A DNA stretch of 64,000 bases, from positions 76,285 through 140,284 of the forward strand of contig CAMVON010000003.1 of assembly GCA_947169155.1 (NCBI GenBank), given 5' to 3'. Source of the stretch: an uncultured Clostridiaceae bacterium. Lineage in GTDB: Bacteria; Bacillota; Clostridia; TANB77; CAG-465. The position numbers and the translations under genes are program-made. Below, one piece after another: positions 1,676 to 63,557 of the stretch. Position 1 is the stretch's first letter; each line of letters opens with the position of its first letter. The notes beneath the pieces are model-generated. The model made no database searches. It was not told the origin of the DNA and worked only from the letters and a program-made list of their open reading frames with translations.

Positions 1676-2704
1676 CTATTCTAATGAATACTCATCAGTA
1701 AGATTACCAACAATTTCTTCTACAGCGTCTTTTAGTGTTATAACACCAGCCATTCTATTTTCATCTTTAACAATTACCATAGCTTGTTTTTCAGATTGCA
1801 TCATTCTAAAAATATCATCTATTTTATCATTTATATCAACAAAGTATGGTTGATGCATTGCTGTTTTGTAGTCTAATTTTCCATTTTGAGAATAGCGAAT
1901 TAATAGTTCTTTTACAACAAGTATTCCCACTATATTATCCATTCTATCTTTATATACAGGTATTCTAGAAAAATTACAGTTCTTGATAATATGAAGTAAA
2001 GCTTTCTCGCTTGTATATGTATCAATAGCTATAACTTTTTCACGTGGCGTCATAACTTTTTGAGCAGTTGTATCATCAAACTTGAATACTTTAAGAAGTA
2101 AATCTTCTTCTTCCATGTCTATTATACCTTCGCTTCTACCTCGAGATATAATAGATATTATCTCATTTTCTGTAATAGTATCATCAGTCTTCTTCTTTAT
2201 ACCTAAAAGCTTACATACAAAGTTTGTAGTTGCACTAAGTAGTATTACTATTGGATAAAATATCTTTTGAAAAATACTAATAGGTAGACTACAAGAATAT
2301 GCTACTTTTTGTGGAGAAGCAAGAGCTATTCTTTTTGGAACAAGTTCACCAAGTATTAATGTAAAGAAAGATAATACTAAAGTAACAAGTATAATTAGTA
2401 TTGTTTCAGTAGAAGAAAGACTAAGTGGAATAAGTGGAGCAACTACTTGTGCAAGTTTTTCAGCAAGAGTTTCTGCGGCAAAAGCACTAGACAAGAAACC
2501 AATTACTGTAATACTTATCTGTATAACTGCTAAAACATTACTTGAATTTTCTAATAATTTTTTAACTCTTTTTGCTTTTTTATTTTCTTGCTTAATATCA
2601 TTATCTAACTGGATTTTATTAATAGAAACAAATGCCATTTCAGCTGCTGAGAAAAATCCATTAATGAGTATTAAAACCAAAAGCAAAAGTATTTTTAATA
2701 CCAT
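1676..2704 (-). CDS. CNNM/DUF21 + CBS-pair membrane protein (hemolysin/CorB-like) lacking the C-terminal CorC_HlyC domain
   Basis: 342 aa from ATG 2704 (AAAGGA RBS; the 2755 start adds 17 aa with no RBS); DUF21 signature ..INGFFSAAEMAFVSINK..; CBS region ends ..AVEEIVGNLTDEY then stop. Confidence 0.85.
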   Translation of the reverse strand: MVLKILLLLVLILINGFFSAAEMAFVSINKIQLDNDIKQENKKAKRVKKLLENSSNVLAVIQISITVIGFLSSAFAAETLAEKLAQVVAPLIPLSLSSTETILIILVTLVLSFFTLILGELVPKRIALASPQKVAYSCSLPISIFQKIFYPIVILLSATTNFVCKLLGIKKKTDDTITENEIISIISRGRSEGIIDMEEEDLLLKVFKFDDTTAQKVMTPREKVIAIDTYTSEKALLHIIKNCNFSRIPVYKDRMDNIVGILVVKELLIRYSQNGKLDYKTAMHQPYFVDINDKIDDIFRMMQSEKQAMVIVKDENRMAGVITLKDAVEEIVGNLTDEYSLE

Positions 2705-2949
2705 ATAATCAACATCCTTTAATAATAAGTTATCATATATAATAAAAAAATACAATAAAAAATGGAAAATTAAAAATGAATAAAAATAATAATTTTTTAT
2801 GTTGAGTATTGAAAAATAAAATATAAACGAATAACATAATTACATAAGAAATAAAAAAGCAAGCAATGGTTCTTGATTTTTTATCAAAAGTATAGTATAA
2901 TACAAATAGTAAAAACGAACATAAATTTTTTTTAGTAAACAACCTCTAC

Positions 2950-5677: not shown

Positions 5678-6967
5678 ATGTATTGTTCAAAATGTGGAAA
5701 TGAAATTAAAGATGGTTATCTTTTTTGCGATAAATGTGGAACCAAAGTAGAAATACCAGAAGCTCCTCAATTAGAAAAAGAACCAGTTAATACTACTCAT
5801 GAAGAAGTAGTAGAAGAGGTTACTCCAAAACAAGAGGGAGTAAGCGAGGAAAGACTAGATGAAATACTTAGTATGCTAGATGAAGAAAAAGTAGAGGAGA
5901 AAGTTGAAGAAACTGTAACTCCTGCAGTAGAAGAGAAAAAAGAGGAAGTTAGCCAAGAAAGAGTAGACCAAATATTAGGAATGCTAAATGAAAAAGAGGA
6001 TGTTAAAATTGAAGAACCTGTTATAACTCAAGAATCAACTCCAGTGGTAGAACCTCAACCAGTTCAACAAACAGTTATACAAGAACCTGTAGCGACAACT
6101 ATTGTACCAGAGACAAACAGAGTAGCAACAGAGGTTGTTTCAAAACCTGTTACTCCAAAAGTTGAACAACCAAAATCAACAGATGTAAAAAATGATTCAC
6201 CACTAGGCTTAATTTCAATGATCATTGGATTACTTTGTATACCTTTGGCAGTATTTATTAAACTATGGGTTATTCCAATAGCTATTGCAGGTATAATAAT
6301 TGGTGCATGTCACAAAGGAAAAGATGGAAAAAAGACAGCAGGTATAGCATTGAGTGCAGCAAGTATTCCAATTGCAGTTATTGTTGCAATTATTGCAGGA
6401 ATCTTTGGACTTGTTGGAGGACTATTTAACCTTGCAAGTGATACTATAAAAGAAGAAATAAAAATTCAAAATCAAGTGGAAACTAAATCACTTGTATATA
6501 GTGGCGATGGCTATACACTAAATTATGATTCAAAATGGAGAGCTACAACTGAAAGCGAAACTTATGAAGATGCCTTAGAATATAAAAATCAAAAAGATTA
6601 TCTTGTCCCAATAGATGTTACTACATTTTCTGATATTGATGAATTTAAAGATTTAGATATTTCAACAAAAGAAGGAAGAAATAAAATTTATTCTGATTTT
6701 TCTGAATACTGGATTGAAGATCAAGAAGATGAAGATACAATTGTAAAAGAAGGATCTCAATTTAAATTATTAAAAGATGATATTTATTATGCAACATTTG
6801 AATATGAAAATGTTGAAAATGATATGACAGGGCATTATATTCTTATGATTTCTAAAAAATCAAATGTATTTATTACTATGGCTACAATATGCTCAACAGA
6901 AGATTTAGATGATTTTATGGATGAAGTTATAAAAATACTAAAAACAATAGAAATTGATGAGCGTTAA
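5678..6967 (+). CDS. Zinc-ribbon membrane protein with acidic repeat region
   Basis: 429 aa; AGGAGG RBS; N-terminal CxxC..CxxC zinc ribbon (YCSKCGNEIKDGYLFCDKCG); Glu/Val/Pro-rich linker with two copies of a VS(E/Q)ER(L/V)D(E/Q)IL(S/G)ML module; three TM helices; C-terminal globular domain. Confidence 0.7.
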   Translation: MYCSKCGNEIKDGYLFCDKCGTKVEIPEAPQLEKEPVNTTHEEVVEEVTPKQEGVSEERLDEILSMLDEEKVEEKVEETVTPAVEEKKEEVSQERVDQILGMLNEKEDVKIEEPVITQESTPVVEPQPVQQTVIQEPVATTIVPETNRVATEVVSKPVTPKVEQPKSTDVKNDSPLGLISMIIGLLCIPLAVFIKLWVIPIAIAGIIIGACHKGKDGKKTAGIALSAASIPIAVIVAIIAGIFGLVGGLFNLASDTIKEEIKIQNQVETKSLVYSGDGYTLNYDSKWRATTESETYEDALEYKNQKDYLVPIDVTTFSDIDEFKDLDISTKEGRNKIYSDFSEYWIEDQEDEDTIVKEGSQFKLLKDDIYYATFEYENVENDMTGHYILMISKKSNVFITMATICSTEDLDDFMDEVIKILKTIEIDER

Positions 6968-7011
6968 GATATACTAATAATTCATTTGAACAATATTTAA
7001 ACATAAAAAAA

Positions 7012-7050
7012 GAGGATATTAGAATCAAATCTAATATCCTTTTATTTTTT
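7012..7050. terminator. Bidirectional rho-independent terminator
   Basis: Stem AGGATATTAGA / TCTAATATCCT (7012-7040) flanked by an A-run and a T-run; lies between convergent genes. Confidence 0.8.
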
Positions 7051-7066
7051 AGTTTAATGTATGTAA

Positions 7067-7630
7067 CTATTTTTCTTTCTTTTTAAAACTAAAAATTCCT
7101 AAGACTTTTGTAAATCTATCAACTATTTTATTACTATGAGCTTGAGCAACAAGTTTAAATTGTGCTTTACCACCAATTGTTAATGATGCAACTAATGCTG
7201 AAATGATTACTTGCATATTAATTGGTAAGTTATATCTTTCAGTAATTTTTAATGCAATTATTGTACCTACGGCACCACTTATGATACCACATACGTCACC
7301 AATTACGTCGGCACATATACTAGATACTTTAGGAGCATTTCTAATAAGTTTTATAGAAGTTTTAGCTCCATCTAATTTTCTACTTGCTTTAGAATGGAAT
7401 TCTTTTTCCTCAGCATAGTTAACAGCCATGGAAATCATATCAAAAAGAATACCAAGAGCTATAACAAGTAATAATACTAAAATTGCAATAGGTATAGGTA
7501 GTATATTTACTGTCTCAGTTGCAATAAATGAGAAAACAATTGATAGTATAAATGATAAAAGCGACACTGTCGCTACCCATTTACCAGTCGAACTGTTATC
7601 TTTCTCATCTTTTGAATCTTTCGATTTCAT
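7067..7630 (-). CDS. oapA: OapA-like four-TM membrane protein (OLE-associated protein A)
   Basis: 187 aa from ATG 7630 (AGGGGAGA RBS 10 nt upstream; the 7657 TTG start has no RBS); about 21 kDa; four predicted TM helices; DxxxD motif in ..ICADVIGDVCG..; immediately downstream of the large structured RNA. Confidence 0.65.
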   Translation of the reverse strand: MKSKDSKDEKDNSSTGKWVATVSLLSFILSIVFSFIATETVNILPIPIAILVLLLVIALGILFDMISMAVNYAEEKEFHSKASRKLDGAKTSIKLIRNAPKVSSICADVIGDVCGIISGAVGTIIALKITERYNLPINMQVIISALVASLTIGGKAQFKLVAQAHSNKIVDRFTKVLGIFSFKKKEK

Positions 7631-7659
7631 ATTTATATTATCTCCCCTTAAAAGCAATA

Positions 7660-8256
7660 ATAAGATGGTGATTTCTTAAGTAAATACTATGGTTTAGGTC
7701 CAGTAGAATTTCTCTGCAATCTACTAACCATTGCTAGTTAGCCGTTTCCGTTTAAAGACAACACATGGAGGTTACCCTTACCATGAACTGGATCGCCACT
7801 TAAATCCATACTTTAATCCTTAAAAAATCTTATCCTTTTGGACAAACATCCTAGAAGTTTTCCTTTGGTGTGCACTGTACAATTACTAGTCTCTTTTGCA
7901 GTGTAAATTTCATTACCAGATATCAACTTATAATTGGCCACATATAAGTTCATACCTTTTTAACGGGTAAATCCCAATAACACCACTCAAGACAGGCTAC
8001 GCTACATATTGTGTCTTGGCACGCAATGTAGGGTTTTACTAATTGTGTCTATCATCATATTTAGAACTTTTAGCCTCAGCGAAAATAGGATGCGGTATTA
8101 TATGCCATTATAATCTACTCCTAAATTCTTTACTCCCAGACCACACGCAAAACTGGGCGTTTCGCGCATCGACCAGAAACTTCAACGGTATGCCTACTAG
8201 TGGATTTTTAGCCCCACCCTCGTAAAAGTTCGTGCAACTAGAATAATGCACCATCA
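7660..8256 (-). ncRNA. ole: OLE (ornate, large, extremophilic) RNA candidate
   Basis: About 600 nt with no credible ORF; GC-enriched relative to flanks; consensus promoter just upstream; numerous helices on the minus strand (GTGCA/TGCAC, CTACAT/ATGTAG, ACTTATA/TATAAGT, CACTG/CAGTG, CTAAC/GTTAG nested within ATGGTT/AACCAT); followed by an oapA-like gene. Boundaries are approximate and no covariance model was run. Confidence 0.6.
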
Positions 8257-8262
8257 CATATT

Positions 8263-8291
8263 ATTATACCACAAATTAATCAAAAATGCAA
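8263..8291 (-). promoter_or_regulatory. Sigma-A consensus promoter driving the OLE-like RNA and oapA
   Basis: Minus strand reads TTGCAT (8291-8286), exactly 17 nt, TATAAT (8268-8263), with TGG immediately 5' of the -10. Confidence 0.7.
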
Positions 8292-8446
8292 GTTGATTGC
8301 ATATAAAATAGGTTACATAACATATATTACAGATGTAGAGCCAGTTACATGAATTAAAAAAAGTTCAAAAAAATACAAAATTTTCTATTTTAATCTTTTC
8401 TTTTTTGTAATTTATGGTAAAATCTTTCTCAGAGGTGATATATACT

Positions 8447-9420: not shown

Positions 9421-9645
9421 ATGCAAGGTATTGTAGATAGAATAGAGGATGATATTGTAGTAATAGAAGCTGAGGGTACTATGTATAACGTAGATATCGA
9501 ACTTATTGAAGACGAAATTTCCGAAGGAGATGTAGTAGATATTGAATTTTCAGATAATGAAATAATCTGTGTAACTAAAGATTATTCACAAACCAAAGAG
9601 CGAGAAACGTATATAGAAGAGTTAACTCGAGATATGTGGGAATAA
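9421..9645 (+). CDS. DUF3006-type small acidic protein
   Basis: 74 aa; starts 2 nt after the MBL gene stop; MQGIVDRIEDDIVVIE.. pattern typical of DUF3006 partners of ComEC-like MBL hydrolases. Confidence 0.7.
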   Translation: MQGIVDRIEDDIVVIEAEGTMYNVDIELIEDEISEGDVVDIEFSDNEIICVTKDYSQTKERETYIEELTRDMWE

Positions 9646-9689
9646 TAATTAAGGAAATAAAACATAAATATACTGTAGGAGGTATGTTT

Positions 9690-10382
9690 ATGTTTTTTTC
9701 TTATTTAATACAACTATTTACTAGTCTTTTTGGACTATTTGGTTATATATCTCAAGATAAGTTATATCCTGAACCATTAAGTAAGACTGAGGAAGAATAT
9801 TATCTAAGAAAATATTTTCAGGGAGACAAAGAAGCAAGAAACATTTTAATAGAACACAATTTAAGACTTGTTGCACATATTGCTAAAAAGTTTACAGATG
9901 ATAAACAAGAATTAGAAGAATACATTTCAATAGGCACTATTGGACTAATAAAGGCTATAGACAGCTTTAAAGAGAACAAGGGATATAAGATTAGTACTTA
10001 TGCTTCAAGATGCATAGAAAATGAAATATTAATGAATATACGAAGTACAAAAAAGATAAAGCAAGAAGTGTCCCTCAACCAAGTAATAGGAACAGATAAA
10101 GATGGAAATGATATGGAATTAGAAGATACACTAGTAATACAAGAAAAAGATTTTGCAGATTCTATTCATGATAGAACAATGCTAAAGCAGGTTTTATCTT
10201 TTATGAATAAAAATTTAGATGAAAGAGAAAAGTATATTATGAATAAAAGATATGGAATGGATGGCAAAAAAGCAAAAACACAACAAGAGATTGCATCCGA
10301 ACTTGGAATATCAAGATCATATGTGTCAAGAATTGAGACAAAAATTCAAGACATGCTATCTAAAGTATTTAAATATCAGTAA
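9690..10382 (+). CDS. sigK: Sporulation sigma factor pro-sigma-K, uninterrupted
   Basis: 230 aa from ATG 9690 (AGGAGG 7 nt upstream); hydrophobic pro-sequence then ..YPEPLSKTEEEYYL.. and ILIEHNLRLVAHIAKKF, closely like B. subtilis pro-sigma-K; region 4 HTH QQEIASELGISRSYVSRIE. Confidence 0.9.
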   Translation: MFFSYLIQLFTSLFGLFGYISQDKLYPEPLSKTEEEYYLRKYFQGDKEARNILIEHNLRLVAHIAKKFTDDKQELEEYISIGTIGLIKAIDSFKENKGYKISTYASRCIENEILMNIRSTKKIKQEVSLNQVIGTDKDGNDMELEDTLVIQEKDFADSIHDRTMLKQVLSFMNKNLDEREKYIMNKRYGMDGKKAKTQQEIASELGISRSYVSRIETKIQDMLSKVFKYQ

Positions 10383-12739: not shown

Positions 12740-13297
12740 TTGCAAGTAAAAAGACGGAAAAATATCTTACTTTTGTTATTATTCATAATAATTACGATTT
12801 TTACAATTTTCATTTATTCAAAAATATATAAGATTAACGTAAGTGATTATCCTCCAAAAACACTTAATCTAGAAAATATCAAATTATATCAAGACGACAA
12901 AATTTTTATTCGAAAAGATGAATGGACATTATCCATTCCAAATTTAAATCTATATAATATCCCCATAATAGATAGTATCGAGGTAGATAAATTAGAAGAC
13001 TATATAGGTCATTTCCCAATAAGTTCATATTTAAAAGGTAATATTTGTTTAGCTGCACATAATGATGGTTATAAAAATAATTATTTTAAAGACATTAATA
13101 CACTATGTGTTGGAGACAAATTAATATATTCGTTTAATAATATCGAAAAATCATACTATGTAGAAAAAGTATATAGTATAGCTAGTACAGATTTTTCGTT
13201 TTTTAACTTAGATCAAAAAGATAAATTAACTCTTGTTACTTGCATATCTAACTCACCTCATATGAGGCTTTGTGTAGAAGCAGTTAATAAGGAGTGA
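12740..13297 (+). CDS. Sortase-family transpeptidase
   Basis: 185 aa; TTG start after AAGGAGGTGA; N-terminal TM anchor; His in ..CLAAHNDG.., catalytic TLVTC motif, Arg in ..HMRLCVEA.. Confidence 0.85.
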   Translation: MQVKRRKNILLLLLFIIITIFTIFIYSKIYKINVSDYPPKTLNLENIKLYQDDKIFIRKDEWTLSIPNLNLYNIPIIDSIEVDKLEDYIGHFPISSYLKGNICLAAHNDGYKNNYFKDINTLCVGDKLIYSFNNIEKSYYVEKVYSIASTDFSFFNLDQKDKLTLVTCISNSPHMRLCVEAVNKE

Positions 13298-13301
13298 TTT
13301 C

Positions 13302-14843
13302 ATGACAAAAATATATGAGTATAAAGATTCAATGCTTGGATTAATACACAAAAAAAGAAGGAGATTATTTGCATACTTAAGACAAAATCAGATAAGAAGA
13401 ATTAAAGCTATTATATTCATTTTAGTGGTTGTATTTTCAAACTGTTCAGTTTTTGCAGTAGAAAATACAAACATTAGCTATGGAAAATATAAAATTAAAT
13501 CTATTCAAGATCCATTCATGTATGTTATATTTAATGGAGTTATGCAACCAAATTATATGTATAGCTATTTAGATGGACAAAAAGAAAAATGTGTATACTG
13601 TTTAGAAAGAGGAAAAGTTGGGCCAGAGAGCAAAGATGAGTATTTAGTAAAAGCTAATGAAAAAATATCAGATGATATGCTACAACTAATACTTTTAAAT
13701 TGTTATCCATATAAAAGCCCACAAGAGTTAGGACTAATGTCTATAGAGCAAGCAAAATTTGCATCTCAGTTTGCAATTTGGTGTTATACATCTGGTGTTC
13801 ATATAGATAGTATAGAGCCTATTAGTGATTTAAATTTAGACATGATACAAGCAATTAAAAAAATATACTATTCTAAAGATGGAAATATAGAAGATTATAA
13901 GATTAACCTAAATATTAAAGAAGATAAGATGCAAATAGAAAATGGATATATAACTAAAACAATTGAAGTAGATACAAAAAATATTTTAGATTATAATGTC
14001 ACATCCTCAGATAGTAATATAACAATTAAAAAAATAGATAATAAGTACAAAATATCATTACCACTAGATAAGATAGAAAACAAATACAGCACATCTTTAA
14101 AAATAGAATATAGTGCCAAAGAAAATATTTCATTGCTTGGGAAAAAAGAAAATGAACAAGAACAAGACATGGCAATACTTTTAGATACTAATTTTAGTGG
14201 CCAAGAATGCTATATGTTAAATTTTGCAGTAACTACAACAGAATTTACATTGTTAAAGGCAGATAAAGATACAAGAGAAGAAATAAGTGGTGTAGAGTTT
14301 AGTATAAAAGACAGCAACAATATAGATTATGGAACAAAAATAACAGATGAAAATGGTAAAATATCTTTAAAAATAAAATATGTAGATAATGTAAATGTTA
14401 TTGTTAAAGAAATAAAGAGTAAAGAAGGATATATCTGTGATTCAAAAGAAAAGATATATGAATTAAAAGGAAATCCGGTTTGCTGTAAAACAGTAGAAAA
14501 TGAAAAAGAAAAAGGCATAATTCAAATAATTAAAAAGACTAAAGAATATAACGAAGTAACTCAAATTAAAGAAAATACACCACTTGAAAATGTAGAGTTT
14601 GAAATACTAGATAGTAATATGAATCTAGTTCAAAAAATAATAACAGATGAGTATGGCTATTGTGAAACAGTAAGAATTCCTATGGGAAAATACTATATAA
14701 AAGAAACAAAAACAAATCCAAATTATAAAATGTTAGATAAATTGGTTGAAGTGGAACTAAGAGAGAATGATGATCAAATATTAATACAAATACTAAATGA
14801 AAACGCCACTATAGAAAAAGAATTACCAGTTACAGGAAAGTAA
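13302..14843 (+). CDS. Thioester-domain (TED) surface adhesin with SpaA/Cna-B-type domains and a terminal LPVTG
   Basis: 513 aa; signal/TM at aa 35-53; TED motifs VYCLE (Cys100) and SQFAIW (Gln156); two prealbumin-like repeats (GVEFSIKD.., NVEFEILD..GKYYIKETK..); ends ..ELPVTGK-stop with no hydrophobic tail. Confidence 0.8.
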   Translation: MTKIYEYKDSMLGLIHKKRRRLFAYLRQNQIRRIKAIIFILVVVFSNCSVFAVENTNISYGKYKIKSIQDPFMYVIFNGVMQPNYMYSYLDGQKEKCVYCLERGKVGPESKDEYLVKANEKISDDMLQLILLNCYPYKSPQELGLMSIEQAKFASQFAIWCYTSGVHIDSIEPISDLNLDMIQAIKKIYYSKDGNIEDYKINLNIKEDKMQIENGYITKTIEVDTKNILDYNVTSSDSNITIKKIDNKYKISLPLDKIENKYSTSLKIEYSAKENISLLGKKENEQEQDMAILLDTNFSGQECYMLNFAVTTTEFTLLKADKDTREEISGVEFSIKDSNNIDYGTKITDENGKISLKIKYVDNVNVIVKEIKSKEGYICDSKEKIYELKGNPVCCKTVENEKEKGIIQIIKKTKEYNEVTQIKENTPLENVEFEILDSNMNLVQKIITDEYGYCETVRIPMGKYYIKETKTNPNYKMLDKLVEVELRENDDQILIQILNENATIEKELPVTGK

Positions 14844-37531: not shown

Positions 37532-37999
37532 ATGAAAAAAATAGCAATATGTCTCTTTTTATGCCTACTTTTAATAGCAACTATTGTATATTCTAAAGAG
37601 GCACAAAGTTCAATTTATACAGATGTACCATCATCAGATAATATGGTAGAACTTTTAGCAAGACTAATTAATGCAGAAGCAAGAGGAGAAAGTTACTCAG
37701 GTCAAGTAGCAGTAGGTGCAGTAATAATGAATAGAGTAAAAAGTCCACTATTTCCAAATACAATTGCAGGTGTAATTTATTCTCCTGGACAATTTTCCTC
37801 TGTTGCAGATGGTCAAATCAATCTACCAATTGAAGAAGACTCAAGTGTATATATGGCAGCACAAGATGCAATAAATGGTGTAGATCCAACTTCAGGCGCC
37901 CTTTATTTCTATAACCCAAGCAAGACAAAATCTAAATGGCTTTTCTCACTACAAACGGTAACAACAATAGGAAAACATGTATTTGCAAAGGAGAGATAA
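37532..37999 (+). CDS. sleB: SleB/CwlJ-family spore cortex-lytic enzyme (catalytic domain only, with signal peptide)
   Basis: 155 aa; signal peptide; hydrolase_2 motifs ..LARLINAEARGE.. ..VAVGAVIMNRV.. ..PGQFS..; followed by ypeB. Confidence 0.8.
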   Translation: MKKIAICLFLCLLLIATIVYSKEAQSSIYTDVPSSDNMVELLARLINAEARGESYSGQVAVGAVIMNRVKSPLFPNTIAGVIYSPGQFSSVADGQINLPIEEDSSVYMAAQDAINGVDPTSGALYFYNPSKTKSKWLFSLQTVTTIGKHVFAKER

Positions 38000-39357
38000 T
38001 GGAAAAGTTTGAAAAACTAGTAATAAGAATAAAAGAAAAGCTTGGAGATAAAAAAGTTGGAATAATATATTTTGCAATAATAGCAATAATAACATTATTT
38101 TTTATGAACATTCTTAAAGGATATAAAATTGAAAGACAAGAAAGAGAAGATTCATATAATAAGGCACTATATAACTTTATTGGAGATATAAGTAATATAA
38201 AAAATGAGATGTTAAAACTTAAAATAACTACAAATGATACATATACTTTAACAACATTAGCAAGTGTTTTTGCAAAAGCTAACAGTAGTATATCTAACTT
38301 GTCTACACTGCCTTTATCACCAAACATAACAGAAAAAATAAATATGTATCTAACTCAAACTAGTGATTATTCATATACACTTATGCGAGCAATTTTAAAT
38401 AGTCAAGAATTAAAAGAAGATGATATAAGACAAAATATAGATTTGTTGTATAACAAAATAGACGAGCTAGATAAAGCATTAAATTCTTTATACATACAAA
38501 TAAATGAAAAAGGAATAAAATGGAACGAGTTAAAAGAAGAAGGGGATAATATATTAAATGATCAAATAACAGATATAGATAGTACAACAAGTGGTAAAAT
38601 AATAAAACCATTTACAGACTATGAAGGCATCATTTATGACGGAGCATTTTCAAATCATATATTGTCTTTAAAGCCAAAATCGCTATCAGATAGAATAATT
38701 TCACAAGAAGAAGGAGAAAGCCTTTTAAAAGACAAATTTGAAACGATGAACGTACAATTTATTGAAGAACTAAACGGACAAATTGAATTATACAAGTACA
38801 AGGTAGATGAAAATGAAGTATATATAACAAAACAAGATGGAAAACTATACCAAATGATAGGAAACAGAAAAGTTGAAGAAAAGAAAATTGAAAGTAAAGA
38901 GGCAATAGATAATGCAAAAGAGTTCCTAAAAAAATGGAACATAGAAAGCATAGAACAAACATATTACCAAGAAATGGATAATACTCTAACAATTTCTTTT
39001 GCAGCAATTCAAGATAATGTAATTTGCTACTCAGATTTAATAAAAGTTAAAGTCGCACTAGACAATGGCAAAATATTAATGGTAGAAGCTAATGGGTATA
39101 TATTTAACAATCATCTGAGGGTAATTAATCCTGTTAACACAGAACAAACAGCAAAAGAAAAAATAAATCCAAACTTAAATATAGAAAAAACAAGACTTGC
39201 TCTTATTCCAACTGAATCTAAAGATGAAGTATTATGTTATGAATTCTTAGGAAGCATAGAAGATAAGAAATTTTTAGTATATATAAATACAGCTAGTCTA
39301 ATTACAGAAAAAATTTATATATTACTAGATACACAAGGTGGTACTCTTGCAATTTAG
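37999..39357 (+). CDS. ypeB: Germination protein YpeB
   Basis: 452 aa from ATG 37999, which overlaps the sleB TAA by 1 nt (TAATG); N-terminal TM; YpeB-like body and C-terminal PepSY-type repeats; canonical sleB-ypeB pairing. Confidence 0.8.
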   Translation: MEKFEKLVIRIKEKLGDKKVGIIYFAIIAIITLFFMNILKGYKIERQEREDSYNKALYNFIGDISNIKNEMLKLKITTNDTYTLTTLASVFAKANSSISNLSTLPLSPNITEKINMYLTQTSDYSYTLMRAILNSQELKEDDIRQNIDLLYNKIDELDKALNSLYIQINEKGIKWNELKEEGDNILNDQITDIDSTTSGKIIKPFTDYEGIIYDGAFSNHILSLKPKSLSDRIISQEEGESLLKDKFETMNVQFIEELNGQIELYKYKVDENEVYITKQDGKLYQMIGNRKVEEKKIESKEAIDNAKEFLKKWNIESIEQTYYQEMDNTLTISFAAIQDNVICYSDLIKVKVALDNGKILMVEANGYIFNNHLRVINPVNTEQTAKEKINPNLNIEKTRLALIPTESKDEVLCYEFLGSIEDKKFLVYINTASLITEKIYILLDTQGGTLAI

Positions 39358-39391: not shown

Positions 39392-40465
39392 ATGATACAA
39401 AATGCAATGAAATGTAAATTTTCATCTAAAGATTTATTTGCTGCCAAAAGAAATGAAGATGGTATGCTAGAGTTAGATGAAATGATAGGTGACTTTCCAA
39501 CATATTCAAGAGAAAAAGTAGGTACAGCAGAAAGACAAAAGAACTGGTTTGAAACAAAAGATGGAAAACAATATATGTTAAAAACTAGTGTAGATAGAAT
39601 AGATAACTATTCACATTATGCAGAATTAATAGCTATGAAACTTGCTCGTCAAGTTGGACTTGGATATGCAAATTATGATTTAGTAAAATATGATGGAAAA
39701 GTTGGCGTAATAACAGAGTCAATACTAGAAAAAGAAGATGATGTATTACTAAGCTTTGAAGATTTAATTGGAACATCAATGGCTCATCCAGACAATCCAT
39801 CAATAATAGATTATCCAGATTCAATGAGAATGCTTGCAAAATCTTTAAAAGAAAATGGATATAGTGAACAAACTCAAAAGAAAATAATAAAAGACCTTGG
39901 AAAACTTCGTGTTTTCGATTTTCTAGTAGGTGCAGAAGATAGACATACAGAAAATATAGGCTTTATGGCAAACAAAAAAGATAAAACAAAACTTGAAGTA
40001 TCTAAAATATTTGATACAGAAAATTCACTACTATTAGCAGATCATGTAGAAGATGTAATGGCTTATGCTTTTGATCCAAAACGTTGTGAACAAGCAGCAA
40101 AAGATGTAATTCCAAAAGTTGCACTTGTTCCAAACGAAGATGCACAAGGAGAAGAAATAGCAGATGCAACTTTAGAAGTTACATTAAGTGATGATTTCGA
40201 ACTAGAAGATTTTCTATCATATGCTACAGAAACAATGGATGTAGATAAAGCAACAAAAGAACTAGAAGAAGAACTTGGTACAACATTACCTATAGAGGTT
40301 AAAAGGGTTGCTAAAGCAGTACTTGAAACAAATAAAAGACGTGCAAAAGATTATCTATATGGTGAAATGGAAGTAGACTACGATTCAGATTATATAGATA
40401 AGAATAAACAGATAATAAATGATGTAAGAGAAAAGCAAAAGAAAGACATTGAAGATATTGACTAG
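39392..40465 (+). CDS. HipA-family Ser/Thr kinase core with a long acidic C-terminal extension
   Basis: 357 aa; catalytic-loop-like ..FLVGAEDRHTENIGF.. (compare HipA D-x-H-x-x-N), downstream ..KIFDTENS..; ..HYAELIAMKLARQVGLGYANYDLVKYDGKVGVITESI.. resembles the HipA core; lacks a HipA N-terminal subdomain. Confidence 0.65.
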   Translation: MIQNAMKCKFSSKDLFAAKRNEDGMLELDEMIGDFPTYSREKVGTAERQKNWFETKDGKQYMLKTSVDRIDNYSHYAELIAMKLARQVGLGYANYDLVKYDGKVGVITESILEKEDDVLLSFEDLIGTSMAHPDNPSIIDYPDSMRMLAKSLKENGYSEQTQKKIIKDLGKLRVFDFLVGAEDRHTENIGFMANKKDKTKLEVSKIFDTENSLLLADHVEDVMAYAFDPKRCEQAAKDVIPKVALVPNEDAQGEEIADATLEVTLSDDFELEDFLSYATETMDVDKATKELEEELGTTLPIEVKRVAKAVLETNKRRAKDYLYGEMEVDYDSDYIDKNKQIINDVREKQKKDIEDID

Positions 40466-58300: not shown

Positions 58301-58329
58301 TTGATATCACTAGCTTTTAAGAGTATAAT
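58301..58329 (+). promoter_or_regulatory. Sigma-A consensus promoter
   Basis: TTGATA (58301-58306), exactly 17 nt, TATAAT (58324-58329). Confidence 0.6.
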
Positions 58330-58375
58330 ACAAATGTGTGTACACAACAAAAGAGGACCTCTAGATAGGAGTAAA

Positions 58376-59251
58376 ATGAATACAAACAAAGCAATTTTAA
58401 AACCAACAAATGATTATGTATTTAAACGAATATTTGGATATAAAGGAAATGAAAAAATAGTAAAGGGATTTATTGAAGCAATAATAGGAGAATCTTTTAC
58501 AGATATTTATATAGAAAATCCTATTTTGCAAAGTGATGATATAACTGGAAAAACTGGCATTTTAGATGTTAGGTTAAAAGCAGATAATTCAAATGTAGAT
58601 ATAGAAATGCAAGTAGTAAGAACAGAAAACATTCAAGACCGAGCATTGTGGTACTGGTCAAAAATGTTTCAAGAGTCAATAATAAGAGGTGAAGACTATA
58701 GTAAAACTAAAAGAACTATTTGCATAATAATAACAGATTTTAATATAGAATCATTACTAAATAACAATAATTATCACAATAAATATATGGCACTAAATTG
58801 TAGTAAAATAGATGATTGCTTGACAAATAAAATGGAAATTCATATAATTGAATTAACTAAAATAGATAGTACAAATTCATTAGGTGATATCTTAAAAGAA
58901 TGGTGTACTTTTCTGAAATATCCAGAAAGAATAGGTGATTTGGTTATGAATGAAGATGAAAATATAAAAGCTGCTAAAGAAGAACTAGATAGAATAAGTT
59001 CAGATGATTTAGAAAAAAGACGTGCAGACGAAAGAGAAAAAGCAATTATGGATCATAAGTGGTGGAGAAATAGTGCTATTAAAGAAGGAAGAGAGATAGG
59101 AATAAAAGAAGGAATAAAAGAAGGAATTAAAGAAGGAATTAAAGAAGGAAAAAAGAAAGTTGCTAAATCTCTCATTAAAGAAAAAATGCCAATAGAAAAA
59201 ATAATATCAATTACTGGTCTTTCAAAAGAAGAAATTGAAGAACTGCAATAA
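58376..59251 (+). CDS. Rpn-family recombination-promoting nuclease / putative transposase (PD-(D/E)XK, YhgA-like)
   Basis: 291 aa from ATG 58376 (AGGAG 5 nt upstream); N-terminus ..KPTNDYVFKRIFG.., ..GILDVRLK..VDIEMQV.. PD-(D/E)XK-like core; C-terminal IKEG repeats. Confidence 0.8.
   Translation: MNTNKAILKPTNDYVFKRIFGYKGNEKIVKGFIEAIIGESFTDIYIENPILQSDDITGKTGILDVRLKADNSNVDIEMQVVRTENIQDRALWYWSKMFQESIIRGEDYSKTKRTICIIITDFNIESLLNNNNYHNKYMALNCSKIDDCLTNKMEIHIIELTKIDSTNSLGDILKEWCTFLKYPERIGDLVMNEDENIKAAKEELDRISSDDLEKRRADEREKAIMDHKWWRNSAIKEGREIGIKEGIKEGIKEGIKEGKKKVAKSLIKEKMPIEKIISITGLSKEEIEELQ
59102..59149 (+). repeat. Four tandem 12-nt units (AT(A/T)AAAGAAGGA) encoding IKEG x4
   Basis: Units start at 59102, 59114, 59126 and 59138; a related degenerate unit lies just upstream (IKEGREIG). 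Confidence 0.9.
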
Positions 59252-59388: not shown

Positions 59389-60294
59389 ATGATAGAGGAG
59401 ATACTAAGAATTATGCCAAGATTTATAGCAGAAGAAATAGTACATCTTAATTTAAATAATAGTATAACTGAGATAAGAATAAGAAGTAAAAATAAGATAA
59501 TAGTTATTTGCTCTAAAAACGAATTTGTACTAGATTTAATTGCTTCACCTAAAATTATACTAGATATACTATTAAATGTTTCTAAAATGTCAATATACGC
59601 AATTCAGACAGATTTAAATAACGGCTTTGTGGTGATACGTGGAGGACATAGAATTGGAGTATGTGGTGAGGTTGTATATGAAAATGGAAGAATTAAAAAT
59701 ATAAAAAATATTTGTAGTCTAAATATTCGTGTAGCAAGACAAATATTTGGTTGTGCAGACAGCGTTATGCCACAGATAATTATAAATGGAATATTTCAAA
59801 ACACATTAATTGTGTCTCCACCTGGTTGTGGCAAAACAACATTACTAAGAGATATTATACGGCAAATTAGTAACGGGATTAAAACATTAGGGATTAATGG
59901 TAAAAATGTAAGCTTAATAGATGAAAGAGGAGAAATAGCTTCTTGCTATGAGGGGGTGCCAACCTTAGACATAGGAATAAGAACAGATGTAATGAGCAAT
60001 ATAGATAAAAGTACAGGGATGTCTATGGTAATAAGGTCAATGGCTCCAGATATAATTGCAACAGATGAAATAGGAAGTGCAAAAGATATATTAGCAATTA
60101 AAGCAGCTATTCTTTCAGGAGTAAAAGTAATATTTACCATGCATGGAGACAGTCTAAAAAGTGTATTAGAAAATACAAATGTTAAAGAACTCATAGATAT
60201 GAATGTGTTTTCTAAAATAATACTTCTGTCTTCTGGAAAAATACCAGGAATAGTAGAAAAAATTTATGATGGAGGTGCATATGTTACTAATTAA
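59389..60294 (+). CDS. spoIIIAA: Stage III sporulation protein AA (AAA+ ATPase)
   Basis: 301 aa; GAGGTGG RBS; Walker A ..SPPGCGKTTLLRD.., Walker B ..IIATDEIG..; first gene of an eight-gene spoIIIA-type operon. Confidence 0.9.
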   Translation: MIEEILRIMPRFIAEEIVHLNLNNSITEIRIRSKNKIIVICSKNEFVLDLIASPKIILDILLNVSKMSIYAIQTDLNNGFVVIRGGHRIGVCGEVVYENGRIKNIKNICSLNIRVARQIFGCADSVMPQIIINGIFQNTLIVSPPGCGKTTLLRDIIRQISNGIKTLGINGKNVSLIDERGEIASCYEGVPTLDIGIRTDVMSNIDKSTGMSMVIRSMAPDIIATDEIGSAKDILAIKAAILSGVKVIFTMHGDSLKSVLENTNVKELIDMNVFSKIILLSSGKIPGIVEKIYDGGAYVTN

Positions 60295-60796
60295 AATAAT
60301 TCTTGGAATCGTAATAGTATGTATCACAGGACATATAGGAATAGAAATGTCCAACATGTTAAAAGCAAGAGAAGAAATATTAACAGAGTATATAACATTT
60401 GTAACACTGGTAAAAAATGAAATGATATACATGAGAGATACACTTCCACATGCTTTTGAAATTTGTAGACAAAAATTAAAAACAACTTTAAAAGATGTAA
60501 TTGGTGCAATAGTAGTAGATATGGAAAAGTACGGAGTAGAGAGAGTAGATGTATCTATAGAAAATAATGTAAACAATCTAGATGCATTAGAAGAACAAGA
60601 AAGGCAAATTATTTCATCAACTTTTAAAAATTTAGGAAGAAGCGATGTAGATTCACAAATAAATATAATAAACAATAGTATTGAGATAGTTAAAAGACAG
60701 ATTAAAGAGGCAGTAGACAAAAAGAATAAAAATTCAAAGGTATATAAAACTATAGGAATTATTACTGGGCTTATTGTAGTAGTTATATTCATTTAA
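60281..60796 (+). CDS. spoIIIAB: Stage III sporulation protein AB
   Basis: 171 aa from ATG 60281 (GGAGGTG RBS; overlaps the spoIIIAA end); TM helices at both ends; position and size fit SpoIIIAB. Confidence 0.8.
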   Translation: MLLIKIILGIVIVCITGHIGIEMSNMLKAREEILTEYITFVTLVKNEMIYMRDTLPHAFEICRQKLKTTLKDVIGAIVVDMEKYGVERVDVSIENNVNNLDALEEQERQIISSTFKNLGRSDVDSQINIINNSIEIVKRQIKEAVDKKNKNSKVYKTIGIITGLIVVVIFI

Positions 60797-60805
60797 GGAG
60801 GCTTT

Positions 60806-61000
60806 ATGGATATAGAGTTATTATTTAAAATTGCAGGAGTAGGGATACTTGTAGCGGTATTAAACCAAGTGTTATCTAAAGCTGGAAGAGAAGATCAAGC
60901 AATGATGACAACACTAACAGGGATAATAATAGTGCTAATGATGGTAGTAACAAAGATAAATGAATTATTTCAAGTAGTAAGGGATACTTTTAAATTATGA
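60806..61000 (+). CDS. spoIIIAC: Stage III sporulation protein AC
   Basis: 64 aa; AGGAGG RBS; two TM helices, ..IAGVGILVAVLNQVLSKAGREDQA.. typical of SpoIIIAC. Confidence 0.85.
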   Translation: MDIELLFKIAGVGILVAVLNQVLSKAGREDQAMMTTLTGIIIVLMMVVTKINELFQVVRDTFKL

Positions 61001-61380
61001 TTATATTAAAGATTGTAGGCTTTGGCATTCTTGCAACTCTAATGGTAGTTATACTAAAAGAAAATAGTAAAGAAGTAGCTATTATATTAATAATAGCATC
61101 ATCAATTATATTGTTATTATCAACTGTAAATTATCTAAAACCTATAGTTTCTATGATAGAAAATATTGTCTCAAATTCTTCTATAGAAAGTAGTTATATC
61201 TTAGTTATATTAAAGATTACTGGCATTGCATATTTAATAGAATTTGGAAAAGATATATGCATTGATGCAGGACAAAACTCAATAGCAAATAAAATGGAAA
61301 TAGCAGGGAAAATAATAATCGTATCTCTTTCTGTACCAGTTATTACATCTGTATTTGAAATAGTGGAAAAACTAATATGA
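60997..61380 (+). CDS. spoIIIAD: Stage III sporulation protein AD
   Basis: 127 aa; ATGA overlap with spoIIIAC; four TM helices; ..ITGIAYLIEFGKDICIDAGQNSIANKMEIAGK.. SpoIIIAD-type. Confidence 0.85.
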   Translation: MIILKIVGFGILATLMVVILKENSKEVAIILIIASSIILLLSTVNYLKPIVSMIENIVSNSSIESSYILVILKITGIAYLIEFGKDICIDAGQNSIANKMEIAGKIIIVSLSVPVITSVFEIVEKLI

Positions 61381-62492
61381 ATATAGTTGTAATTATCATA
61401 ATACTATTATTCTCTAGAAATGTTTATGCTACAGATAAAGTGTCAGAATCATTTGACATAGGAGGATATATAAGTTCTTTGAATGATGTAGTAAAAAATG
61501 AAGAGGGAATAGATGTAGACTTAAATAGTATATACTCGAACATAATAAACGGAAAAGATGAAGAAAAGAAAAATATTATTCAAAAAGTAGTAGCAGTTAT
61601 TGTTTCTCAAATAAAAGAAACAATAAAAGCATCTACGGCTTTAATATTAATAATTCTCCTTGAAACAATACTTTCTTCATTAGAACTAGATAAAAATAGC
61701 CAAGCAGTAAAAATATCTAAATTAGTAATAATAATATCTGCTACAACAATACTGCTAAAAAATTATATTCAAGTGCAAGAAATACTAAAAAATACAATTA
61801 AAACTATATTATATCTTTTAGAACTATCTACAACATTTTTATCAGGAGTTTTAGTTGCAACAGGAAAAATAACAACAACTGGAACAATAGCTCCACTAAT
61901 AATGTTTGTAACAAGCATAATACTAACAATAACAAACTACATTTTTATACCATTATTTAATTTAGCTATAGTAGCTCACATAACTTCTGAGATTTCTGAT
62001 GAAATTAAGTTAGAAAAGCTAGCAAATCTTTTTAGAAAATCTAGTATGTTCATATTTACTACATGTATTAGTATATTTGTATTTGTTTTAGCGCTAGAAA
62101 ATACAATTACAAAATCTGTAGATAGTATATATTTTAAGACAACTCAAAATATAGTTGCAGATACTGTACCTGTAGTTGGAAAGTTTTTAGCAGATAGTTT
62201 AGAAACAGTATTAGGTGCAACAGAACTTGTTGGAAAGGTAGGAGGTACACTATCTATAATATCTGCTGTACTAATTATTATTGTACCTGTAATAAAACTT
62301 GTAGTAATTATGGGTATATATAAAATCATAAGCTCAATATGTCAAATGGTAAGCTATAACAAATCACTTGGAAATATAATAGATTTTTTTGCAAATATAT
62401 ATAAAGATATGTTAGGGATAATTATTGGAACAATGGTAGTATTCATATCTGTTACAGGAATTATAATGTATACAATAAGTAAGATTACATAG
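61377..62492 (+). CDS. spoIIIAE: Stage III sporulation protein AE
   Basis: 371 aa; ATGA overlap with spoIIIAD; signal peptide plus a polytopic body; position and size fit SpoIIIAE. Confidence 0.85.
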   Translation: MNIVVIIIILLFSRNVYATDKVSESFDIGGYISSLNDVVKNEEGIDVDLNSIYSNIINGKDEEKKNIIQKVVAVIVSQIKETIKASTALILIILLETILSSLELDKNSQAVKISKLVIIISATTILLKNYIQVQEILKNTIKTILYLLELSTTFLSGVLVATGKITTTGTIAPLIMFVTSIILTITNYIFIPLFNLAIVAHITSEISDEIKLEKLANLFRKSSMFIFTTCISIFVFVLALENTITKSVDSIYFKTTQNIVADTVPVVGKFLADSLETVLGATELVGKVGGTLSIISAVLIIIVPVIKLVVIMGIYKIISSICQMVSYNKSLGNIIDFFANIYKDMLGIIIGTMVVFISVTGIIMYTISKIT

Positions 62493-62502
62493 GAGGAAAA
62501 AT

Positions 62503-62994
62503 ATGATAGAAATTGTAAGAGATTGGATGGGGTCATTAATTAGTATTTCCTTCTTGGTAATACTAGTTAAGTTAATAGTACCAAATTCAAATATAAAAAA
62601 GTATATATATTCATTGCTAGGTATAATAACAGCTATAGTTGTTTTTAAGCCTTTAATTAACAACTCTAACTTAGAAAACATATTATTAGATGCTACAAAA
62701 AATATAGATTTTAAATCTAATAGTTATAAATATACAGATATATCAAACTATGAAGAAATTAATAACAATAATATCAAGGAGGCATTTAAAGAAAAACTTG
62801 AATCAAGCATAATAAAACTAATTCAAGAAAATACAAATAATAAAAAGGAAAATATCAGTGTAGATGTTGAAATTACAAAAGAGTACAACATAGAAAAAGT
62901 AGTAATAAATTGTGAAGATACAAATAAAGAAGAAATACTAAATCTAGTATCTGCAAACTATGATATACCAAAAGAAATAATTATAATTAACTAG
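62503..62994 (+). CDS. spoIIIAF: Stage III sporulation protein AF
   Basis: 163 aa; AGGAGGA RBS; ..IRDWMGSLISISFLVILVKLIVPN.. SpoIIIAF-type N-terminus with two TM helices. Confidence 0.8.
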   Translation: MIEIVRDWMGSLISISFLVILVKLIVPNSNIKKYIYSLLGIITAIVVFKPLINNSNLENILLDATKNIDFKSNSYKYTDISNYEEINNNNIKEAFKEKLESSIIKLIQENTNNKKENISVDVEITKEYNIEKVVINCEDTNKEEILNLVSANYDIPKEIIIIN

Positions 62995-63002
62995 GAGGAT
63001 AT

Positions 63003-63557
63003 ATGAATAATTACTTAGAAACAATGAAAAATATTCTAAAGGATAAAAAGAAGAAAAAAGAAAATATGATATTCATAGTAGTCTTGCTAGTAGTGCTATT
63101 AATTAGTATAAACTATATATTTAACGATTCACAAAAAGAGGAAAGAAAAATAGAAGATGAATATAAAGATGAAGTTAAAGAAAGTAACACTCAAAAACAA
63201 AATACAAATAGTTTAGAGGAAAGATTAACTCAAATTATTAACCAAGTAGAAGGAATAAGTGATGTAAGCTTAATAATTAATTATAAAGATAGTGGACAAA
63301 GTGAATATGTTTTTAATACAAAAGAAACTATAGCAGAAGAAGGAAATGTATTAAATCTTGAAAAGGAAATTGCATATAATGAAAGTAGTGGACAAAAAAG
63401 TGCAATTAAAACTACACAAAATAATCCTCAAATAGAAGGAGTAATAATAGTAGCACGAGGTATAGAAAATAGTGAAAATAAACAAAAGATACAAAGTGCT
63501 ATAGCAAGCCTTTTAGGCATTGCGTCATATAAAGTGCAGGTATTAAATAGGAGGTAA
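63003..63557 (+). CDS. spoIIIAG: Stage III sporulation protein AG
   Basis: 184 aa; AGGAGGA RBS; N-terminal TM; C-terminal ring-building-motif-like domain (..GISDVSLIINYKDSG.. ..PQIEGVIIVARG..). Confidence 0.8.
   Translation: MNNYLETMKNILKDKKKKKENMIFIVVLLVVLLISINYIFNDSQKEERKIEDEYKDEVKESNTQKQNTNSLEERLTQIINQVEGISDVSLIINYKDSGQSEYVFNTKETIAEEGNVLNLEKEIAYNESSGQKSAIKTTQNNPQIEGVIIVARGIENSENKQKIQSAIASLLGIASYKVQVLNRR

Follow-up and report, generated by a model that had tools for sequence, protein, structure and literature searches.

Positions 8270 to 7067 on the minus strand of a 64,000-nucleotide (nt) stretch of DNA from an uncultured Clostridiaceae bacterium (contig CAMVON010000003.1, positions 76,285 to 140,284; the whole stretch is denoted here as the window) almost certainly carry a known element, an OLE RNA followed by the gene oapA. 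A cmscan search revealed a match to the Rfam family RF01071 (OLE) at 8270..7649 (E = 1.5e-105; 371.4 bits, where the gathering score is 50), and the alignment covers the model end to end and untruncated (model 1-616 of 616). OLE is the sole family with a match in the window when all Rfam families are searched at their gathering thresholds. An earlier reading of the letters alone (the sequence-only reading) had called an OLE/OapA locus here, and the full-length match on the minus strand bears it out. The locus has the RNA and protein family identity, the RNA structure, a conserved promoter and the gene arrangement of this element. The OLE copy is an ordinary member of its family and offers little novelty, being an already-known element correctly called: the promoter type, the OapA partner, the CNNM-like OapA fold and the presence of OLE in uncultured gut Clostridia are already published. 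A survey of OLE in Bacillota that included uncultured gut Clostridia reported 2,822 hits (PMC11332333). The host belongs to Bacillota, as the nearest loci come from metagenome-assembled genomes (MAGs) of Clostridia and the window carries SigK, a SpoIIIA operon and SleB/YpeB.

The consensus structure in the cmscan alignment was mapped to the sequence of the window and then counted on an alignment of the window with 29 related OLE regions. Of the 159 model pairs, 149 are present in the window; 133 of these (89%) are canonical and 16 are non-canonical. Across the 30 sequences, 86.1% of cells at paired positions are paired, compared with 40-48% in slid controls (3′ partners displaced by 1-3 columns), and changes on both sides are found in 113 of 149 pairs. 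Compensatory cells number 702, compared with 230 ± 13 after shuffling, and none of 500 shuffles attains any observed measure. As the structure was derived from the window sequence via the Rfam model, it is somewhat favoured over the slid controls, with a margin that is still very large. The predicted OLE secondary structure is backed by strong covariation among relatives, and on this measure the structured RNA proposed earlier stands. The RNA and its terminal stem are positioned as follows:

7664..8255, minus strand: OLE RNA, from the P1 5′ strand to the P1 3′ strand (Rfam match 8270..7649)
8249..8255, minus strand: P1 5′ strand GAUGGUG, pairing with CACCAUC at 7670..7664 (7 of 7 pairs)

P1 (7 base pairs) is absent from the RF01071 consensus structure, as the model treats those columns as unpaired flanks. 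Compensatory variants of P1 are found in relatives (GUUGGUG/UACCAAC, AGUGGUG/UACCACU, GGUGGUG/UACCACC and GACGGUG/UGCCGUC). Three of the seven helices drawn in the sequence-only reading belong to the conserved structure, namely CTACAT/ATGTAG (outer P8), ACTTATA/TATAAGT (distal P9) and CTAAC/GTTAG (P14.1). The bases of the other four (GTGCA/TGCAC, CACTG/CAGTG, GTAGA/TCTAC and ATGGTT/AACCAT) pair elsewhere in the model or sit unpaired.

The RNA is located in the only long part of the window with no credible open reading frame (ORF), as had been noted: among the spaces separating ORFs of 100 amino acids (aa) or more, only 7658-8413 exceeds 400 nt. The claim that it is richer in G and C than its surroundings also holds (38.2% at 7660-8256, 28.2% in the whole window). 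Inside the RNA region the longest ORF is one of 60 aa on the plus strand (8043..8225), and the minus strand has none of at least 50 aa. We give practically no credence to the possibility that the region encodes a small protein such as this one. The ORF exists, but it begins with TTG, it runs antisense to a covarying RNA structure in which substitutions preserve base pairs, and, as the sole ORF of at least 50 aa in the region, it has a size expected by chance.

The gene downstream of the RNA was assigned as oapA on the basis of its motif, its fold and its genomic linkage, since naming by sequence similarity failed:

7067..7630, minus strand: oapA coding sequence, a multi-pass membrane protein of 187 aa (20.2 kDa, isoelectric point 9.6)
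7295..7309, minus strand: codons of DVIGD (the DxxxD motif), residues 108-112

DVIGD is invariant in an alignment of 17 sequences (alignment A1, 50-74% identity to the window protein). The DxxxD motif has been described as distinctive of OapA, which is related to the CNNM domain, and CNNM domains are described as having no DxxxD (PMC11332333). An AlphaFold model built on the 17-sequence alignment (pLDDT, the predicted local distance difference test, 79) contains long helices at residues 11-41, 46-72, 99-133 and 137-164. Two hydrophobic segments are clearly above the Kyte-Doolittle threshold and two are marginal, and the marginal two are long helices in the AlphaFold model. The protein had been described as a four-helix membrane protein of about 21 kDa with DVIGD; its length, motif and four modelled helices agree with this, while its mass is slightly lower and two of its segments are only marginally hydrophobic. 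The top five Foldseek matches in the PDB are all CNNM/CorB/CorC membrane domains (7m1t, 7m1u, 7cff, 7cfg; probability 0.99-1.00, template-modelling (TM) score to the query 0.40-0.57). This agrees with the published picture of OapA, a CNNM-like membrane fold lacking CBS and CorC domains; neither domain was seen in the window protein.

A large protein database holds 1,428 homologues of the window protein, mostly unnamed proteins of Clostridia MAGs, and a few of them bear precomputed hits to PF01595 (CNNM); the window protein itself gives no PF01595 hit up to E = 1. A protein with 99% identity (P0001) stems from a Logan assembly. In a search with the window RNA (nhmmer), 77 of the 80 loci encoding a homologue showed OLE upstream in the same orientation; among the three loci without it, two have too little upstream sequence. 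OLE was confirmed by Rfam in 16 of 17 loci tested (248-528 bits). The distance from OLE to the predicted oapA start, estimated heuristically, is at most 200 nt in 58 of the 62 loci that could be scored. Grouped in this way with proteins downstream of OLE elsewhere, and with its invariant DxxxD and CNNM-like fold, the 187-aa protein is OapA as had been proposed. One locus, L077 (3300-3944), has an OapA homologue (50% identity) preceded by a 640-nt AT-rich gap with gene fragments. The gap matches OLE neither by nhmmer nor by Rfam, even with the E limit relaxed to 0.01, and the 4 kb to each side hold no OLE. The L077 contig is binned as Muribaculaceae, which looks like mis-binning.

Transcription of the unit is predicted to start from a promoter immediately upstream of P1:

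8286..8291, minus strand: −35 hexamer TTGCAT (3 of 6 matches to TTGACA), 17-nt spacer to the −10
8263..8271, minus strand: extended −10 TGgTATAAT, with TATAAT at 8268..8263 and a predicted start at ~8257-8255

The consensus promoter claimed for the RNA (TTGCAT, 17 nt, TATAAT at 8291..8263) is present, with the correction that its −35 is weak and that its strength resides in the extended −10. A generic consensus promoter scan missed the site because only three of six −35 positions match. For the window and 73 loci (74 sequences), the DNA upstream of the RNA was aligned, with the conserved RNA start as the anchor. TATAAT is perfect in 63 of 74, it ends 12-14 nt from the conserved GCAUUAUUCUAGU in 66 of 74, and a TTG-type −35 is found at a spacing of 16-18 nt in 57 of 74; the TGn of the extended −10 is found in 42 of 74. 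As its position is conserved across relatives, the promoter is a conserved part of the locus, with a start 0-2 nt before P1.

At its 3′ side the RNA runs into the oapA translation start, with oapA located directly downstream on the same strand after a 30-nt spacer:

7641..7648, minus strand: oapA ribosome-binding site (RBS) AGGGGAGA, 10 nt before the ATG at 7630

An equivalent AAGGAG precedes the start codon in L001-L004, the four loci closest to the window (the window and L001-L004 are denoted as the window clade). There is no terminator-like site from the RNA to the RBS or ATG 7630, consistent with the sequence-only reading. About half of the related loci, the window included, have a spacer of at most 60 nt and no terminator, and a heuristic detector finds a terminator-like hairpin separating OLE from oapA in ~14 of 62 related loci (for example L005, L006, L008, L020 and L028), so that both OLE-oapA architectures exist. 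The short spacer with no terminator implies that RNA and oapA share a transcript here, as would be expected if the 600 nt were a mere cis-acting 5′ leader of the membrane-protein gene (riboswitch-like or an attenuator) and not a stable RNA with its own role. We consider a leader of this kind very unlikely, as the RNA is a full-length OLE family member with no expression platform overlapping the RBS, and the hairpins before oapA in the ~14 related loci indicate that the RNA is made alone there. In Halalkalibacterium (Bacillus) halodurans, moreover, OLE is abundant, unusually stable and gives a single Northern band (PMC3413148).

A candidate attenuator that would set the OLE 3′ end was considered at 7574..7560 (minus strand) and rejected as probably due to chance. 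It consists of a GC-rich 6-base-pair hairpin followed by TTTATCATTT, in oapA codons 19-27, which contain rare codons (GCG, TCG). Compared with synonymous-codon shuffles, the hairpin has p = 0.036 in the window, ~0.01-0.03 in L003 and L004, where comparable hairpins are present, 0.1 in L002 and 0.99 in L001. Its median p is 0.34 over 80 sequences (the window and 79 loci), and other 54-nt segments of oapA fold more strongly.

The OLE-oapA unit ends at a terminator that it shares with the next gene:

7004..7043, both strands: bidirectional intrinsic terminator, ending the OLE-oapA unit and the convergent gene 5678-6967

On the minus strand the terminator has an 11-pair stem (7040..7013) followed by CTTTTTTTAT, and on the plus strand a 14-pair stem. 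The upstream neighbour is a divergent gene for a ComEC-like metallo-β-lactamase (MBL) hydrolase at 8414, followed by DUF3006 and sigK, and the downstream neighbour is a convergent zinc-ribbon gene (5678-6967, plus strand). With its own promoter and terminator, a divergent gene upstream and a convergent gene downstream, the ole-oapA unit is self-contained. The proposal of an autonomous unit therefore holds for the window, but the contrast drawn with H. halodurans was overstated, since OLE there also has its own proximal promoter, with some co-transcription with neighbouring genes (PMC3413148), and the difference is one of neighbourhood only. The remark that such a locus is easily missed by protein-centric annotation is fair, with the qualification that any Rfam scan detects OLE.

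Several observations weigh against the assignment of this locus as OLE RNA with oapA. Searches of Pfam, NCBIfam and PDB sequences with the 187-aa protein returned only noise and no match. The tie to the OapA of H. halodurans is indirect, through homologues of 43-45% identity that are encoded beside OLE copies of 485-528 bits in L069 and L080. A discrete 3′ end of an RNA of ~600 nt is not accounted for, as no terminator precedes oapA. Neither OapB (KOW/SBB) nor OapC (YbxF/L7Ae) was seen with Pfam on nearly all window ORFs of at least 100 aa and a 74-aa ORF at 9421..9645; the scan was confined to these ORFs of the window, and both proteins are likely to be 70-100 aa long. Finally, the window copy scores 371 bits, compared with 485-528 for the best full-length copies, and its P7 is reduced.

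OLE RNAs have been divided into full-length OLE; variant 1 (the TANB77 gut clade), with short P7-P9 and frequent loss of the P13 OapB site; and variant 2 (RF39), which lacks both P7 and P8 (Fernando and Breaker 2024, PMC11332333). The elements that distinguish these types, and the copies compared, are as follows:

8039..8073, minus strand: reduced P7 of 35 nt, made up of a large loop on a short outer stem, with non-canonical marks and deletions in the cmscan alignment
7764..7785, minus strand: P13 hairpin with bulge and GUAA (GNRA) tetraloop, the published OapB-binding element
L080 and L069: highest-scoring full-length OLE, 485-528 bits, P7 of 62 nt (L080) and 29 nt (L069)
Window and L001-L004: 370-390 bits, P7 of 35 nt, P8 of 30 nt, P9 of 105 nt (full length), P13 bulge and GNRA loop kept
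L005, L006 and L017: reduced OLE, 248-310 bits, P13 GNRA loop in none of the three

Five of the six highest-scoring copies have a P7 of 54-66 nt, compared with the 35 nt of the window, and the pairing of P7 is weak (58% paired in the 30-sequence alignment). The window P13 (CAUGG-UA-AGG-GUAA-CCU-CCAUG) resembles that of the highest-scoring full-length copies, and the P14.1 GNRA loop is retained as well. Binding of OapB in H. halodurans requires the P13 GNRA loop and a bulge, described there as a single nucleotide (PMC7936274), compared with a bulge of 2 nt in the window, where the OapB site is a predicted one. The retained P13 GNRA hairpin would predict an oapB gene in the genome. Like variants 1 and 2, the window comes from an uncultured low-GC gut Clostridia MAG and has a shortened P7; unlike them, the window and its four closest relatives have retained P9 at full length, a normal P8 and the P13 bulge with its GNRA loop. 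Intermediate in Rfam score, these copies are most aptly classed as full-length OLE in which P7 is reduced, and not as variant 1 or 2; they fall outside variant 1 because only P7 is short, and P8, P9 and the P13 bulge and GNRA loop are normal.

A bit score below that of the highest full-length copies, a P7 that is reduced and poorly paired, and 16 non-canonical model pairs could also indicate a decaying, non-functional OLE relic in a reduced gut genome. This is highly improbable, as 89% of the model pairs present are canonical, family-invariant nucleotides are kept, and the promoter, the RBS, oapA and the GNRA loops of P13 and P14.1 are intact. The four closest relatives, moreover, share the architecture with compensatory changes, the outer P7 stem included, and compensatory substitutions exceed disruptive ones within the clade.

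Reductions among the gut Clostridia relatives fit the published variant classes. P7 and P8 are absent or nearly so in L005 and L006, and P9 is truncated in L017, L062 and L064. The P13 GNRA loop is lost in L005-L007, L017, L020, L026, L033, L042, L046, L049, L059, L062, L075 and L078 (alignment A2, columns 591-634), and a canonical P13 is kept by the window clade and L031.

Assigned as an OLE-oapA unit, the locus would operate as follows. A housekeeping-sigma-type extended −10 promoter would start the transcript at ~8256 on the minus strand, 0-2 nt before P1, and the first ~590 nt would fold into the conserved OLE architecture. After 30 nt with no terminator, the same transcript would supply the oapA RBS and coding sequence, and the intrinsic terminator at 7040..7004 would end the ~1.25-kb unit. 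By analogy with H. halodurans, OapA would bind the OLE RNA and hold it at the membrane, and the ribonucleoprotein may aid in coping with short-chain alcohols, cold, excess Mg2+ and poor carbon sources. In that species cells need the OLE complex to grow in ethanol, in the cold, at raised Mg2+ and on poor carbon sources, and recent cryo-electron microscopy suggests an OLE RNA dimer that possibly spans the membrane (PMC11332333, PMC12265935). OapA-OLE binding, membrane localisation and a stress function at the present locus are likewise inferred from published work on other species.

A more specific and rather doubtful suggestion for the window clade is that ribonucleoprotein assembly is linked in cis to the insertion of OapA into the membrane during its translation, processing then freeing the mature RNA, and that a nearby canonical CNNM-CBS gene hints at a functional pairing in Mg2+ homeostasis. 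It is based on the compact, isolated unit of the clade, in which the oapA mRNA begins with OLE and no terminator intervenes, and on the CNNM-CBS gene lying 0.1-4.3 kb from oapA in the clade.

In the window this CNNM-CBS gene (1676-2755, minus strand) encodes a 359-aa protein with a CNNM domain and a CBS pair (PF01595, E = 7e-49) and no CorC_HlyC domain; the gene shares the strand of oapA and lies 4.3 kb away from it. Synteny is kept in L001-L004 (62-66% identity), and in L003 the gene directly adjoins oapA after a rearrangement. The gene was found within 4 kb of oapA in no other locus among the 80, and BLASTP detected no similarity between OapA and the CNNM-CBS protein.

Compared with the OLE/oapA locus of H. 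halodurans C-125, the window has an RNA of the same ~600-nt size with the same conserved helices and sequence blocks, a proximal promoter that starts at P1, oapA immediately downstream on the same strand, DxxxD in OapA, and both the P13 bulge with a GNRA loop (the predicted OapB site) and the P14.1 GNRA loop. It differs in its reduced P7, in its host, an uncultured gut anaerobe rather than an extremophile, and in its setting, as the window pair is isolated between the divergent MBL/DUF3006/sigK group and the convergent zinc-ribbon gene. The H. halodurans pair, by contrast, presumably lies inside a same-strand housekeeping cluster with isoprenoid and DNA-repair genes, and such genes have reportedly been described as OLE neighbours. 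Nowhere in the 64-kb window was an isoprenoid or DNA-repair gene found. With the CNNM/CorB/CorC/MpfA Mg2+ transporters (DUF21/CNNM domain, PF01595) the window OapA shares its predicted membrane-domain fold; unlike them, it has DxxxD and no CBS or CorC domains. MpfA, a CNNM-type Mg2+ transporter, is reported to be anticorrelated with OLE (Fernando and Breaker, PMC11332333).

OLE is among the largest conserved bacterial RNAs without known biochemical function, which gives well-delimited copies some comparative value. The window copy adds little to this, as a standard Rfam model detects it and an uncultured host gives no easier test of function. Its comparative use is modest: the promoter position is fixed at P1 over ~70 loci, the relatives are divided into those with OLE fused to oapA and those with OLE separated by a terminator, and the predicted OapB-binding hairpin is retained by one gut clade and lost in most of its relatives.

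The gene arrangement around the unit, including the flanking MBL-DUF3006-sigK and DUF3137 genes, is common only to L001-L004. The convergent gene at 5678-6967 (plus strand), located between oapA and the DUF3137 gene, encodes a protein of 429 aa that has a zinc ribbon at its N-terminus and also contains membrane segments and an acidic linker of low complexity. The protein has no tblastn match in L001-L004; in these loci, apart from L003, DUF3137 comes straight after oapA. The gene looks like a lineage-specific insertion.

Sporulation genes are found at three places in the window: sigK with a pro-sequence at 9636-10382 (plus strand), near the OLE promoter region; sleB/ypeB at 37532-39357 (plus strand); and the spoIIIA operon at 59389-63557 (plus strand). 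Judged from these genes, the host is a predicted spore-former, in agreement with the published correlation of OLE with sporulation genes. We also observed a sortase with a thioester/SpaA-domain surface protein (12740-14843), a HipA-like kinase (39392-40465) and a PD-(D/E)XK family transposase (58301-59251), all encoded on the plus strand.

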